Source: Archangium sp. | GTDB taxonomy: Bacteria; Myxococcota; Myxococcia; Myxococcales; Myxococcaceae | Direction: 5' to 3' | Assembly (NCBI GenBank): GCA_031367385.1 | Contig: JANLPS010000525.1 | Location: 1 to 12,593 of the forward strand | Length of the DNA stretch: 12,593 nt | Shown: piece after piece, positions 1 through 11,394 of the stretch | How the letters are laid out: each line of letters begins with the position of its first letter | Numbering within the stretch: the first letter of the stretch is position 1 | The notes under the pieces: model-generated | What the model saw: the letters and a program-made list of their open reading frames with translations, nothing else | Database searches by the model: none | Told to the model about the DNA's origin: nothing | Position numbers and translations under genes: made by a program

Positions 1-53
1 TCGCCGTAGGCCACCCGCAGCGACTGCACGTCGATTTTGACCGCTGGGCTCAC
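1..53 (-). CDS. pstB: Probable phosphate ABC transporter ATP-binding protein, N-terminus only (runs off the window)
   Basis: GTG at 53 overlaps the pstA stop (GTGA, 50-53) and reads MSPAVKIDVQSLRVAYG, typical of an ABC ATPase N-terminus. The position after pstSCA fits pstB. Only 17 codons are visible. Confidence 0.7.
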   Translation of the reverse strand, partial: MSPAVKIDVQSLRVAYG

Positions 54-949
54 AACGCTGCCCCGCGAGCGCGCGAACGCACCAGCACCGCGACGAGGTT
101 GAGCAAGAAGGTCAGCATCAGCAGCACCAGCACGGTGGCGTACATCATCGGCTGCGCGGCCTCGACGTCGGGGGCCTGGGTCGCGAGCACATAGGCGTGG
201 TACCCCAGGTGCATGAACTGCGACGAGAGGGAGGTCGGCAGGTTCGGCAGCGCGTAGGCAGCGCCGGTCAGCAGCACCGGGGCGACTTCACCAGCGCCTC
301 GGGAGATCGCCAGAATTGCGCCGGTCATGATGCCCGGCAACGCGCCCGGCAGAATGACGCGAAACAAGGTCTGCGAGCGGGTGGCGCCGAGGGCGAGGCT
401 GGCCATGCGGAGCTCGACTGGCACCGAACGCAGCGCTTCTTCGGTCGTGACGATGACGATGGGCAGGGTGAGCAAGGCCAGCGTGAGGGCGGCCCAGAGC
501 AGGCCCGGCTGAGCGAAGTGCAGGCCCGTGCCGGAGATGCGGTCGACTCCGGTGCCGATCAGCTGCACGAAGAACCCGAGCCCGAAGAGGCCGAAGACAA
601 TCGAAGGCACGCCGGCGAGGTTGGCGATGGCGGCGCGGGCCAAGCGGGCCAGGCGCGAATCGGGTGCCGCGTATTCGTGCAGGTACACGGCGGTCGCGAC
701 GCCGAGCGGCATCACGGCCACGGTCATCAGCAGGGTCAGCACCGCGGTGCCATAGATCGCGGGAAAGACGCCACCCTCGGTGACCTCGTCGCCCGGGCCT
801 TCGGTGAAGAATCTCCACGAGAGCGCGCCCCAGCCCCCGAGCACTGCGTCGACGACGACGACGACGAGCCCGGTGAGAATGAGGAGCATGGCCAGGCCGG
901 TCAGCCCTGCGAAGACCCGGTTGATTCGGCGACCGCGGGCGGGGTTCAT
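50..949 (-). CDS. pstA: Phosphate ABC transporter permease PstA
   Basis: Multi-TM protein with GGVFPAIYGT, NLAGVPSIVFGLFG, EEALRSVP...ASLALGATR (EAA loop) and RGAGEVAP. Start placed at ATG 949 (MNPARGRR); the ORF-track start at 985 lies inside the repeat insert. Confidence 0.95.
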   Translation of the reverse strand: MNPARGRRINRVFAGLTGLAMLLILTGLVVVVVDAVLGGWGALSWRFFTEGPGDEVTEGGVFPAIYGTAVLTLLMTVAVMPLGVATAVYLHEYAAPDSRLARLARAAIANLAGVPSIVFGLFGLGFFVQLIGTGVDRISGTGLHFAQPGLLWAALTLALLTLPIVIVTTEEALRSVPVELRMASLALGATRSQTLFRVILPGALPGIMTGAILAISRGAGEVAPVLLTGAAYALPNLPTSLSSQFMHLGYHAYVLATQAPDVEAAQPMMYATVLVLLMLTFLLNLVAVLVRSRARGAAL

Positions 950-1169
950 CGCGAAGCCTGTACGAAGCCGCTCATCCTGAGGCACTCGAAAAATGAAGCC
1001 CGGGTCACGGGAAGCTGCACGTGAACGCGGAGGTAAACCTTCGCCAGCGATGGGTGCTCTCCGTTCAGGGCTGTGTGCCGCCGAGCGGGCTCGGTGTGCT
1101 CGGTCGCAGCCCGGCCCGCGTCCCTCGAGATGAACGGGTTCGACTCCGAAGGGATGAACGGGTTCATCG
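942..1169. repeat. Palindromic REP/MITE-like insert 1 (218 bp plus a 10-bp flanking duplication)
   Basis: GGGTTCATCG direct repeat at 942-951 and 1160-1169. Imperfect inverted arms at 968-990 and 1139-1161 (16/23 match). Internal hairpin CCGAGC-GG-GCTCGG at 1081-1094. Shares CTCATCCTGAG (971-981) with insert 2. Confidence 0.7.
946..1167 (-). CDS. Putative 73-aa bridging micro-ORF spanning insert 1, no recognisable family
   Basis: ATG overlaps the pstC stop (ATGA 1167-1164) and TGA overlaps the pstA start (ATGA 949-946). Translation is unproven. Confidence 0.4.
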   Translation of the reverse strand: MNPFIPSESNPFISRDAGRAATEHTEPARRHTALNGEHPSLAKVYLRVHVQLPVTRASFFECLRMSGFVQASR

Positions 1170-2111
1170 TCCCCTCGCCCGCTGAACCCGGTTTCTCGCC
1201 CAGGCCCCGACGGTGCCGTTGAGCACCAGGTTCACCACGAACAGCATCACGCCCAGAAAATACAGCAGCGACGTGTGGGTACTGCCAGGCACCACCTCGC
1301 CCATCTCAGCGGCGATGGTGGCCGACAACGTTCGCGTCGAATCGCTCAACCTCGCCGACACGATCGCGGCGTTGCCCGAGGCCATCAACACGATCATCGT
1401 TTCTCCGACCGCGCGCCCGAAGCCCAACACCAGCGCCCCCAGCACCCCCGGAGCCGCCGCCGGCAGCACGATACGCCACGCGGTGTCCCACCTGGTGGCG
1501 CCCAGGGCGAAGGAGGCCTCTCGGTACGAGCCCGGCACCGCCCGCAGCGCATCTTCAGTGACGGTGAACACAATCGGCACGATCGCCAGCGCCATCGCGA
1601 CCCCCGCGACGATCGCGTTGAGCCGGTAGGGCCAATCGAACAGCGACTGAAGCGCGCTCGCCAGCACCATCAGCGCAAAGAACCCCAACACCACGGAGGG
1701 GATACCCGCCAGCAACTCGACCACCGGCTTGATCACCTCGCGCAGCCGTGGAGGCGCGAACTCCGCGCTGAACACCGCCGCCGCGATGCCCACCGGCGCC
1801 GCCAGCACCATCGCCACGCCCGTCACTTTGAGGCTCCCGATGATCAGCGGCACCACGCTGATCTTCGGCACCCGCGAAATCGGCTGCCACACCCAGGCCG
1901 GTGGCCGCCCCTCGCGAACTGCTTGCGGCAAGAACAGCTTCGCAAACGAGACGTCGTGATCGAACAGCAGCGGCAACGCCTCGCGGGCGATGAACACCAG
2001 CATCAGCAGCAACACGACCAGGCCGCTCATGCCGGCGACAGTGACGAGCCACTCCACCACCCGGTCTGTGCGCGAAATTCGAAAGGGAGCGGCCATGTCG
2101 TCTTTGCTCAC
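1164..2111 (-). CDS. pstC: Phosphate ABC transporter permease PstC
   Basis: KPVVELLAGIPSVVLGFF, EDALRAVP...EASFALGATRW and GRAVGETMIVLM motifs. GTG start overlaps the pstS stop (GTGA 2111-2108). Confidence 0.95.
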   Translation of the reverse strand: MSKDDMAAPFRISRTDRVVEWLVTVAGMSGLVVLLLMLVFIAREALPLLFDHDVSFAKLFLPQAVREGRPPAWVWQPISRVPKISVVPLIIGSLKVTGVAMVLAAPVGIAAAVFSAEFAPPRLREVIKPVVELLAGIPSVVLGFFALMVLASALQSLFDWPYRLNAIVAGVAMALAIVPIVFTVTEDALRAVPGSYREASFALGATRWDTAWRIVLPAAAPGVLGALVLGFGRAVGETMIVLMASGNAAIVSARLSDSTRTLSATIAAEMGEVVPGSTHTSLLYFLGVMLFVVNLVLNGTVGAWARNRVQRARGR

Positions 2112-2917
2112 TGCAGCGGCAAGAACCCCGCTCGATCTGCAATGGCCTGACCCTCGGGCGATCGCACGAACTCGAGAAAAGCAGCGGTGTCAGCCGAGGG
2201 GTGCACCGGCACATAAAAGTACAGCTGGCGCGACAAAGGGTATTTACCTGACATCACATTCTCGCTGGTGGGGAGCACCTCTTCGTCTCCGATTCGAACC
2301 GCCAGCACCCGAACGTTGCGCGCGAAGGCAGTGCCTCCAAAGCCCATCGCCCACGGCTCATGCGAGACCGCGTTGACCACCGCGCCGGTGCCCTCGAGGG
2401 GCTGCAGGGTCGAGGCGAAGTCTTCGTCGTGCAGCACCCGCTCTTTGACGAACCCGTAGGTGCCCGAGGTGCTCTCACGGGTGTAGGTGATGATCTGGCG
2501 ATCGGGCCCACCGAACGCCGACCACCGGGCCACATCGCCCAGCAGCACGTCGCGCAGCTGCTCGAGGCTCAGCGCCCGAACCGGGTTCTTCGCGTTCACG
2601 AAAAACGCCACGCTGTCGCGTACCACCGGTACCACGATCGGAGCGTGCCCCAACTTGGCGGCCAACCGGGCCTGCTCTTCTTCGCCCAACGGGTGCGAGC
2701 TGGTGGCGATGTCGGTTGCTCCGCTCTCGAGGGCCGCGAGGCCCGTACCCGAGCCGCCGCCGGTGATCTGTACGGTGATGTCGGGGTGTTTTCGGCTGAA
2801 CGCGCGAGCCCAGCGTTGTGAGAGGCCGACCAGCGTATCTGAGCCCTTGATGGTGATCGTACCCGCAGCGGCCGGGGCTGCCAGCACCGCCAACAGCACG
2901 GCCGCGAGTCGTGTCAC
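2108..2917 (-). CDS. pstS: Phosphate ABC transporter substrate-binding protein PstS
   Basis: Cleavable signal peptide ([18 protein letters not shown]). Motifs ITIKGSDT, GGGSGTG, RESTSGTY and YPLSRQLYFY. GTG start overlaps the upstream regulator stop. Confidence 0.93.
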   Translation of the reverse strand: MTRLAAVLLAVLAAPAAAGTITIKGSDTLVGLSQRWARAFSRKHPDITVQITGGGSGTGLAALESGATDIATSSHPLGEEEQARLAAKLGHAPIVVPVVRDSVAFFVNAKNPVRALSLEQLRDVLLGDVARWSAFGGPDRQIITYTRESTSGTYGFVKERVLHDEDFASTLQPLEGTGAVVNAVSHEPWAMGFGGTAFARNVRVLAVRIGDEEVLPTSENVMSGKYPLSRQLYFYVPVHPSADTAAFLEFVRSPEGQAIADRAGFLPLQ

Positions 2918-3612
2918 GCGGGAGCGACCGGCTGGTTCTCGTCAGACAGCCGGTACCCGACGCCGCGAACGGTCTCGACCAGGTTTCGCGCGACGCCCAG
3001 CTTTTCACGCAGACGCATCACATGCGTGTCGACGGTGCGGGTCTCTTGCTGGCTGGTGATGCCCCACACCTCGGCCAGCAGCTGCTCGCGCGACTGCACC
3101 CGGCCCGGGCGCGACATCAGGTGCTGCAGCAATCGAAACTCGAGGGCGGTGAGCTCGACGGGTTCACCGGCGACGGTGGCACGGTGGGTGCCCACGTCGA
3201 TGGTCAGCTCGCCCAGCTGCAAGATCACAGCGGGCTCTGACTGGTGCGCCCGGCGCAAGATGGCCTTGACCCGCAAGACGAGCTCACGGGGGCTGAATGG
3301 CTTGGTGACGTAGTCGTCAGCGCCCACTTCGAACCCATCGACCCGGTCGGCCTCTTCACCGCGCGCGGTCAACATCACGATGGGCACGAGCTTCATTCGA
3401 GGGTCGGTGCGAAACCGGCGGCACACTTCTTTGCCAGAGATGTCAGGCAGCATTAGGTCGAGCAGCACCAGGTCGGGCACGCGCTGCGCAACGGTGGCCA
3501 GCGCCGCTTCGCCGGTCAACGCCACCTCGGTTTCGAGGCCCGCTTGCTGAAGGTTGAACTCCACCAGGCTGGCGAGGTCGGCTTCGTCATCGACGATGAG
3601 AATGTGGGCCAT
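2914..3612 (-). CDS. phoB: OmpR/PhoB-family response regulator, first gene of the pst operon
   Basis: Receiver domain ([28 protein letters not shown]) plus winged helix ([33 protein letters not shown]). Coupled to pstS. Confidence 0.88.
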
Positions 3613-6203: not shown

Positions 6204-6881
6204 TCACGACACGAGCTTGTAACCGACGCCGCGAATGGTCTCGATGATGTCACCCGCCGGCCCCAGCTTCTCGCGCAGCCGTTTGATGTGAGTGTCGACC
6301 GTGCGGGTGGTGATCTCGGCCTCGATGCCCCACACGTCTGAGAGCAAGGTCTCGCGGGTCTGCACCCTGCCCGGCCGCTCGAGAAAGGTCTTGAGCAGCC
6401 GAAATTCGAGCGCAGTCAGCACGACCAGCTCGCCTTTGACGCGCACCTCGTGGCGTTCGGCGTCGAGCGCGATGGCTTTGATGCTCAGCGCCTTGCCGAC
6501 CGGAGCCACCTCTTCTCCATGCCGCCGCAGCACCGCTTTGACCCGCAAGAGCAGCTCTTTGACCGAGAACGGTTTGACCACGTAGTCATCGGCGCCCAGC
6601 TCGAGGCCCTTGACGCGGTCGCTCTCTTCGCCGCGCGCGGTCACCATGATCAGCGGCGTGCGTCGGGGCTCGGTCTCGCGAATCAGCCGCGCGACCTCGG
6701 TGCCCGCGATGTCGGGGAGCATCAGGTCGAGCAGCAGCAGCTCGGGCTTGAAGATCTTGTGGCGGGCGATGCCAGCGGCTCCGGTTCGGGCGACCTCGAC
6801 CTCGTGACCGTCGCTCTTCAAGTTGTATTCGAGGAGCGAGGCGAGATCTTGCTCGTCTTCGATGACCAAAATTCGCGCCAT
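6204..6881 (-). CDS. phoB: OmpR/PhoB-family response regulator, likely cognate of PhoR
   Basis: [39 protein letters not shown] and ETIRGVGY. Directly upstream of phoR. Confidence 0.88.
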   Translation of the reverse strand: MARILVIEDEQDLASLLEYNLKSDGHEVEVARTGAAGIARHKIFKPELLLLDLMLPDIAGTEVARLIRETEPRRTPLIMVTARGEESDRVKGLELGADDYVVKPFSVKELLLRVKAVLRRHGEEVAPVGKALSIKAIALDAERHEVRVKGELVVLTALEFRLLKTFLERPGRVQTRETLLSDVWGIEAEITTRTVDTHIKRLREKLGPAGDIIETIRGVGYKLVS

Positions 6882-10273: not shown

Positions 10274-11200
10274 ATGAGCACGGCCTTCGTTTTTCCAGGT
10301 CAGGGCAGTCAGTCGGTCGGCATGGGCCAGGCGTTGGCGGCCGCGTTTCCCGAGGCGAAGGCGGTGTTCGAGGCGGCCGACGATGCGCTCGGCGAAAAGC
10401 TCTCGACCCTGTGCTTCGAGGGGCCTGAAGACAAGCTCAAGCTGACCGCGAATACCCAACCGGCGATCTTGACGGTGTCGGTGGCGGCGCACGCGGTGTT
10501 CTCGAAGCGCTTCGGGGCCCTGCCCGCGTTCGTGGCCGGGCATTCGTTGGGTGAGTATTCGGCGCTGGTCGCCAGTGGCGCGCTGTCGTTGGCCGACGCG
10601 GTTCGGTCGGTTCGCGCTCGCGGTACGTTCATGCAAGAGGCCGTGCCGCCTGGAGTCGGGGCGATGGCCGCGGTGCTGGGCCTGCCGCCAGAGAAGATCG
10701 TCGAGATCTGCGCCGAGGCGTCGCAGGGTGAGGTCGTCTCGGCGGCCAACTTCAACGAGCCGAACCAGACGGTGATCGCTGGGCATGTCGCGGCGGTCGA
10801 GCGGGCCTCGGTGGCGCTGAAGGCGGCTGGGGCGAAGCGGGTGTTGCCACTGCCTGTGAGCGCTCCGTTTCATTGCGCGCTGATGCAGCCGGTGGTGCCT
10901 CGGTTGGCCGAGGTGCTGGGTACGGTCAGGTTCAACGCGCCCAATGCGCCGGTGGTCAGCAATGTCGAGGCGGCTGCGAACCAAGATGCCTCGAAGATCG
11001 TCGCGCTGTTGCTGCGGCAAGTGGTCGGGTCGGTGCGGTGGGTCGAGACGGTTCAGGCGCTCGAGAAGGCCGGAGTGACGAAGATCATCGAGCTTGGGCC
11101 CGGCAAGGTGCTCAGCGGGCTGGTGAAGCGAATCAGCCCGAACGTGCCCTGCGTGAATGTCGAAGACCCGGCGTCGCTCGAGAAGGCGCTCGCCTCATGA
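10274..11200 (+). CDS. fabD: Malonyl-CoA:ACP transacylase
   Basis: [32 protein letters not shown] and [14 protein letters not shown] at 10274, 4 bp after the fabH stop. Confidence 0.97.
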
Positions 11201-11390
11201 GCGCTCGTGTGGAGTTCGGAGATCGTCGATCGCACACGCTCATCGTGAGCACCCCAGGACCTCTCATGGTGAGCCTGTCGAACCACGAACCACGTAGCCG
11301 GCTGCTCAGTGCGGTCGTTGGACGAGCTCAGGATGAGGGCTCTCCTCTCGCGCTCAACGCGACGCACCACGAAACCCGAGCAGCCCATGA
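11196..11390. repeat. Palindromic REP/MITE-like insert 2 (about 190 bp)
   Basis: CATGA at both ends (11196-11200 and 11386-11390). Inverted arms at 11261-11282 and 11318-11339 (16/22 match). Extra partial arm at 11237-11250. Tandem GAACCAC at 11280-11293. CTCAGGATGAG at 11327-11337 is the reverse complement of 971-981. Confidence 0.75.
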
Positions 11391-11394
11391 CTGA
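11197..11394 (+). CDS. Putative 65-aa bridging micro-ORF spanning insert 2, no recognisable family
   Basis: ATG overlaps the fabD stop (ATGA 11197-11200), reads MSARVEFG...[10 protein letters not shown]...AAHD, and stops 8 nt into fabG (ATGACTGA). Translation is unproven. Confidence 0.35.

Follow-up and report, generated by a model that had tools for sequence, protein, structure and literature searches.

The pstC/pstA junction and its insert

The window, by which is meant the whole stretch of DNA analysed here (12,593 nucleotides, contig JANLPS010000525.1 of the Archangium sp. assembly GCA_031367385.1), carries the genes pstC and pstA on its minus strand, and between them lie two copies of a 10-mer, a short open reading frame (the micro-ORF) and the arms of a palindromic repeat. 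A second junction with a bridging frame is found on the plus strand, between two genes that we take to be fabD and fabG. The features are as follows.

1164..2111, minus strand: pstC (TIGR02138, 250 bits, over the cut-off; present in the ORF list), its stop TGA at 1166-1164 inside the first ATGA
50..949, minus strand: pstA (TIGR00974, 246.7 bits, over the cut-off; present in the ORF list), its start in agreement with relatives
1160..1169, minus strand: first CGATGAACCC, with the pstC stop, the micro-ORF start and the opening bases of the repeat's left arm
942..951, minus strand: second CGATGAACCC, with the micro-ORF stop and the pstA start
946..1167, minus strand: bridging ORF of 73 codons (micro-ORF), from ATGA to ATGA, its peptide without conservation
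1139..1164, minus strand: decayed left arm, copy 1 (73% over 26 nt against the left arm of the copy on contig C80)
1117..1141, minus strand: decayed left arm, copy 2, a tandem repeat of GAACCCGTTCATC (weak profile match at 1120-1140, E 6.6; 71% over 45 nt against the C80 copy)
1030..1105, minus strand: extra spacer of about 77 nt with approximate boundaries, absent by alignment from five sister copies
966..1013, minus strand: right arm, of a subtype with 10 copies (92% over 48 nt against C80; profile match at 990-967, E 6.7e-5)
11197..11394, plus strand: second bridging ORF, of 65 codons, at the presumed fabD/fabG junction, spanning a repeat pair of the same family (fabD stop at 11198-11200, fabG ATG at 11387)

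As the first-pass annotation had stated, the two copies of CGATGAACCC lie 218 nt apart on the minus strand (1169-1160 and 951-942), and a stop-free frame of 73 codons, from 1167 to 946, joins the two ATGAs. The frame begins with an ATG that overlaps the pstC stop and closes with a TGA that overlaps the pstA ATG at 949, the position at which pstA also starts in relatives; an alternative in-frame GTG for pstA is found at 985, inside the right arm of the repeat. The AACCC of the first CGATGAACCC is at the same time the beginning of the left arm. GTGA overlaps are present at phoB/pstS, at pstS/pstC and at the end of pstA, so the annotation's account of the other pst junctions holds as far as the contig reaches, the gene downstream of pstA, named there pstB, being truncated by the contig start. 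The bridging ORF between the presumed fabD and fabG terminates in ATGACTGA, with an overlap of -8.

A scan of positions 850-1300 returned no promoter or terminator, and Rfam covariance models gave nothing over 942-1169 at E values up to 5. Upstream of the pst genes, two PhoB-like response regulators (2914-3612 and 6204-6881, minus strand) flank a histidine kinase and a metallophosphoesterase, and the synteny of this region with the fab cluster is maintained in relatives. Contigs from three runs (X1, X5 and X6) carry the insert identically, letter for letter, with no joint that skips it, and their agreement makes an assembly artefact unlikely, X1 and X5 being perhaps the source of this DNA.

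There are 110 occurrences of the 10-mer genome-wide, and a 10-nt match is seen in 0.85% of ATGA junction pairs drawn at random. Because 37% of spacer shuffles yield an open frame of the micro-ORF's length, the 73-codon frame taken alone is unremarkable, and the earlier caution that such ORFs arise by chance was well placed. The codon use of the micro-ORF is nevertheless more gene-like than that of shuffles (GC3 0.78 vs 0.63, p=0.003), as it is in two of ten bridges, a feature that would fit a genuine small-protein gene but that may reflect adaptation to translation or a captured coding scrap. Against a small-protein gene, both ends of the ORF are repeat arms and the ORF is missing from relatives; the peptide has no match in Pfam or NCBIfam, and a search of 1.84 billion representatives returned only the peptide itself and two weak matches in long proteins (one over residues 7-34, the other with no passing stretch), with no conserved homolog. 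With neither a family nor a conserved homolog, a conserved small protein is rejected, a genuine small-protein gene of any kind is extremely improbable, and the peptide itself is likely irrelevant.

An empty site in related genomes

The first-pass annotation had predicted that relatives would show the junction without the insert. A search of 41 genomes gave 30 loci, from which the 11 best-scoring ones with pstC were taken, and in ten of them the pstC/pstA overlap is -4, the remaining one being +1; the congeneric genome G001 has the -4 arrangement. A further set of relatives, from which one unpublished genome was left out, scored -4 in 21 of 22 cases, and the 22nd, unscored, shows ATGA by eye. 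The junction of the relatives is a plain RTGA overlap, as predicted. Since relatives have the -4 overlap, the 218 bp, judged by comparison of these junctions, is a lineage-specific insert in an ancestral 4-base pstC/pstA overlap; it is a real and recent repeat insertion.

The same congeneric genome has a -4 overlap at five of the eight testable junctions that are bridged in Archangium sp., the other three being +1, +60 and +73. The five plain junctions are pstC/pstA and those that we take, from their sequences, to be murC/murB, purN and the next gene, batA/batB, and an upstream gene (x) with tatD. At the presumed fabD/fabG junction, 6 of 13 relatives have a spacing of -4 or -1. One other relative (G012, locus L048) has an unrelated 357-nt spacer at this junction.

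The insert belongs to a dispersed palindromic repeat family

Alignment with five sister copies resolves the insert into a left-arm/right-arm pair in which the left arm is doubled and decayed and about 77 bases are extra. For this middle part of about 77 nt, a search of the genome gave only matches of 15-19 nt and no similar sequence. The alignment identifies the 218 bp as an inverted pair, now decayed, from a family of REP-like palindromes that is non-autonomous. Profiles of three arm subtypes located 342 arms at 246 loci in this genome, and the earlier proposal of a non-autonomous element is borne out to the extent that the insert is a copy of this dispersed repeat. The arms start with CCGTTC or CTCTC and have an imperfect stem; the GTAG tag is absent from their consensus, and ATGA and GATGAAC are contained in them.

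Of the 246 loci, 103 lie between co-directional genes, 75 between convergent and 18 between divergent genes; 28 fall within called genes and 22 at contig edges. The convergent share (75 of 196 intergenic loci) far exceeds the background of 286/2834 (p=2e-28). Twenty-two good-scoring loci are read in frame within called genes, to which they add 10-45 residues (contigs C17, C153, C202, C233, C340, C471 and others); a likeness for such in-frame intragenic arms is provided by the Rickettsia palindromic elements, as they are described in PMC3733652. G001, which is 87% complete, contains no match to the arm pattern, against 174 in this genome, and arm matches were found in 19 of 121 genomes of the order, mainly in one distant genus; the family therefore expands patchily. 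Within the present lineage it would have spread mainly near the 3' ends of genes.

Bridging frames are in excess across the genome

For a genome-wide test, 6709 genes were called with a codon model in which overlaps earn no bonus, the starts being the caller's own and not curated. From the 103 co-directional loci, 80 with a gap of 20-450 nt containing the arms were retained and 23 were dropped. A strict bridge was defined as a stop-free ORF that starts at an RTGA at the upstream stop and overlaps, at its end, the called start of the downstream gene by -4. Ten of the 80 repeat-bearing junctions are strictly bridged, against 18 of 2132 repeat-free ones (Fisher p=1.7e-8), and the real spacers, whether dinucleotide-shuffled or shifted in phase, lead to an expectation of about 2.5 bridges (p=0.001). 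Without the contig of this window the count is 9/70, with a null of 2.6 (p=0.0007). The enrichment of doubly coupled open ORFs over shuffled controls that the first-pass annotation anticipated is thus present.

The signal lies in the junctions whose upstream gene ends in ATGA. Among 13 such genes, nine are followed by a bridge (-4 or -8), two are fused, one has a frame that runs past the start and one a frame that stops short, and for GTGA-ended genes the pattern is weak (3/16 bridged, eight stopping short). ATGA stands ahead of the repeat at 13 of the 80 junctions, in comparison with 33 of 740 convergent gene ends (p=2e-4). The bridged inserts measure 25-286 nt and cover all three length phases, and every reading frame and either orientation of the arms is represented among them, so there is no built-in ORF. 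In-frame fusions number six against about four expected, which is not significant, although with a different arm set they number 10 against 4.3, which is significant.

Among 14 loosely scored bridges, C402 looks like a real small gene, presumably TusA-like, and C123 has an uncertain downstream start; both lie outside the strict ten. A minimal bridge of 10 codons precedes the presumed tatD (G000:C494:23719-23751), where the host stop is merged with the TGAG of the arm and half an arm is left. At two further sites, on C375 (minus strand, stop near the 16100-14186 gene end) and at C443:21361, no arm was detected, a bridging ORF is present and the stop/start context is duplicated over about 15 and 12 nt, respectively; other inserts may therefore follow the same rule.

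A second lineage, G085, was read over 60 stretches (1.17 of 4.0 Mb) as an independent case. The test of -4 bridges alone gave 3/72 vs 12/325, which is not significant. Its elements (L109-L168) have extended inverted ends, the left end TGATGGCC.. supplying a -1 start together with the stop of the upstream gene, and the right end often reading ..GGCC/ATGA at the downstream start. Starts at -1 were added post hoc, once the element ends had been seen to read TGATG, and the count then became 8/72 vs 15/325 (p=0.047; phase null 3.3, p=0.009), so that this lineage backs a relay filter only weakly and post hoc. In two other genomes, G060 and G068, the counts were 0/5 and 0/4, samples too small for a test.

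It could be argued that the repeat simply inserted with a duplication of ATGA and that the frame is open here by luck, as the shuffles mentioned above and the negative -4-only test in G085 would allow. The genome-wide excess, on the other hand, survives three controls and the removal of this window, and such a neutral origin is considered very unlikely. The best reading of the excess, with translation itself being inferred, is a survival filter for translational relay, to which we assign a probability of roughly two in three.

Insertion at overlaps and the question of targeting

The first-pass annotation had proposed an element that targets stop/start overlaps or is only tolerated at them, and had noted the duplicated 10-mer at the two ends of the insert. 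No target-site duplication characterises the family: the flanks of 34 paired elements share 4.4 nt, against 4.5 nt by chance, which dismisses both a family-wide 10-bp rule and a MITE with fixed duplication, even though inverted arms are present. The 11 bridged junctions share 3-10 nt, with a mean of 5.6 compared with 5.1 for ATGA pairs by chance (p=0.10).

A targeted element in the manner of MIRUs, in which a mobiliser selects and duplicates RTGA overlaps and the element brings a built-in ORF, would account for the presence of two ATGAs, one at each end, in place of the ancestor's single one, most clearly at the presumed batA/batB and x/tatD junctions in comparison with G001, and also for the 9-10 nt common to the flanks in two of the 11 bridged junctions (p=0.02). 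The pst and batB inserts moreover have a common right flank ending GCGATGAACCCC, although ATGAACCC also begins pstA natively in one relative, and the extended end of the G085 elements brings a stop and a -1 start with it. Most loci, however, lie away from overlaps, with 75 of the 246 convergent, 18 divergent and 28 in called genes, the arms are read in every frame and both orientations, and the paired elements lack the duplication that such a mobiliser would leave. Targeting is therefore unlikely, and of the two options proposed earlier it is tolerance that fits, only 10 of 80 junctions being strictly bridged.

For a repeat that enters without such targeting, an insert in an overlap would be tolerated only if stop and start both remain, because an overlap has no spacer. 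The second ATGA could have come from a short duplication, from microhomology with the arms or from later mutation. Selection would then have retained those copies whose frame brings ribosomes to the next start, whether by a -4 or a -8 overlap or by extending the next protein in frame at its N-terminus.

Translation signals and folding at the pstA start

The Shine-Dalgarno (SD) signal of pstA is weak, at -2.5 kcal/mol against a median of -5.1 over 690 overlap starts, energies computed with a presumed anti-SD sequence, no 16S 3' end having been found. The absence of a strong SD noted in the first-pass annotation is hence confirmed for pstA, but a weak downstream SD is no general trait, since bridged junctions have a median of -4.5 kcal/mol and several bridged genes have good SDs.

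This median, no weaker than that of overlap genes, would suit an explanation in which the frame is kept open only for ribosome cover of the mRNA, which would melt the hairpin or guard against Rho polarity, and pstA starts on its own signal or at the in-frame GTG at 985; short ORFs that relieve attC hairpins in integrons are a precedent, according to the account in PMC8876359. Cover alone does not require an exact -4 stop, yet the exact phase is enriched (10 vs 2.5), and the pstA SD is weak. Cover without relay is accordingly thought improbable, about as much so as a targeting element.

In a fold of the naked RNA, the start codon of pstA is base-paired to the left arm. The mean unpaired value of this start is 0.30 in naked RNA and 0.49, 0.29 and 0.40 with the micro-ORF masked, and the natural junction of G001 is equally paired (0.32); folded as a whole, the insert is no more stable than its shuffles (z -1.2). 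Masking of the micro-ORF thus opens the pstA start inconsistently, and folding was rejected as proof of start-codon unmasking.

In the relay reading, ribosomes that finish pstC would re-initiate on the micro-ORF, open the hairpin of the repeat as they pass and initiate anew at pstA. On the evidence of the junctions compared, the repeat in the ancestral pstC/pstA overlap likely survived because an open junk frame that links the pstC stop with the pstA start would relay ribosomes.

A candidate mobiliser

A RAYT was rejected as mobiliser, this 98%-complete genome having no PF01797 (Y1_Tnp) match. Four GIY-YIG matches are present: one small gene (G000:C388:19220-19495; L046:821-1096) is flanked by inverted arms, a second (G000:C321:30755-31027) has an arm just downstream, the match on C181 has no arms, and the fourth lies within a long ORF. 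Small nucleases flanked by palindromes have been the subject of previous work. Among 15 related GIY-YIG loci from a species collection, four (L094, L097, L099 and L102) have the same arms adjoining the gene by profile and a fifth has an arm variant by eye, the related loci bearing the titles Dehalococcoidia, Chloroflexota, a delta proteobacterium and Sphingomonas.

By association, the arm-flanked small GIY-YIG nuclease is a candidate mobiliser. A more elaborate proposal, which we hold only tentatively, is that a GIY-YIG nuclease of about 95 residues, instead of a transposase, drives the family, that entry into operon junctions lacking a spacer occurs via ATGA microhomology with the arms, and that the ends evolve in individual lineages to bring a stop and a start, which would make a self-coupling, MIRU-like element out of a REP. 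Within the literature covered, which took in few subscription journals, no GIY-YIG/REP link was found, nor any paper on this palindrome family or on MIRU-like ORFs in REPs.

Relation to known elements

MIRUs (Supply et al. 1997, as summarised in PMC12548453 and PMC3184786) are units of 40-100 bp that carry an ORF and insert at start codons, where their own ORF couples at -4. Like a MIRU, the pst insert is a short repeat in an operon junction with empty and filled sites, a small ORF in overlap with the gene on either side, coupling at -4 to the gene at the site and a 4-nt repeat at both ends. Unlike MIRUs as summarised there, the present elements are pairs of palindromic arms, of 218 bp here and 25-286 nt elsewhere, are read in any frame and stand at overlaps in a minority of cases. 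Compared by description, the insert would work like a MIRU but is no MIRU by size or design.

The CGTC REPs (Di Nocera et al. 2013), in the description available from PMC3733652, have an unpaired CGTC tag, a stem of 8-9 bp and a loop of 4-5 nt. They resemble the present family in their imperfect hairpins, in occurring mostly as inverted pairs at convergent or co-directional 3' ends and sometimes in frame in genes, and in having no flanked tyrosine transposase. The differences are the tag, which is CCGTTC or CTCTC here, and, by that same partial description, the lack there of any named GIY-YIG gene and of the bridging ORFs seen here. Judged by description, the present palindromes are REP-like and come near to the CGTC class.

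REPINs and their RAYTs, in the outline in which they are considered here, are similar in that both systems combine inverted palindrome pairs, themselves non-autonomous, with a presumed mobiliser that is present once and has the repeats on either side, and they differ in that the present genome has no Y1_Tnp gene, the arms have no GTAG tag and the arm-flanked gene is a small GIY-YIG nuclease. The short ORFs of integron attC sites and ORF-11 in attI1, as presented in PMC8876359, offer another parallel, in which a junk ORF lets ribosomes cross a palindrome and re-start while the peptide is unimportant, though attC and attI1 are integrase recombination sites in cassette arrays, in contrast to the chromosomal housekeeping operon found here without an integron. 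For MIRUs and attC sites, the relay principle has already been published.

Implications

The genome-wide statistics would mean that translational coupling is selected strongly enough to filter repeat insertions in core operons, such as that for phosphate uptake and, going by the gene names that we presume, those with fatty-acid, cell-wall and purine genes. A MIRU-like layout can thus arise without a built-in ORF, and about a dozen natural pairs of filled and empty sites make re-initiation versus unfolding testable. Additionally, PMC3733652 points to a gap concerning how REPs without a transposase are moved, and the arm-flanked GIY-YIG genes are a candidate answer to it.
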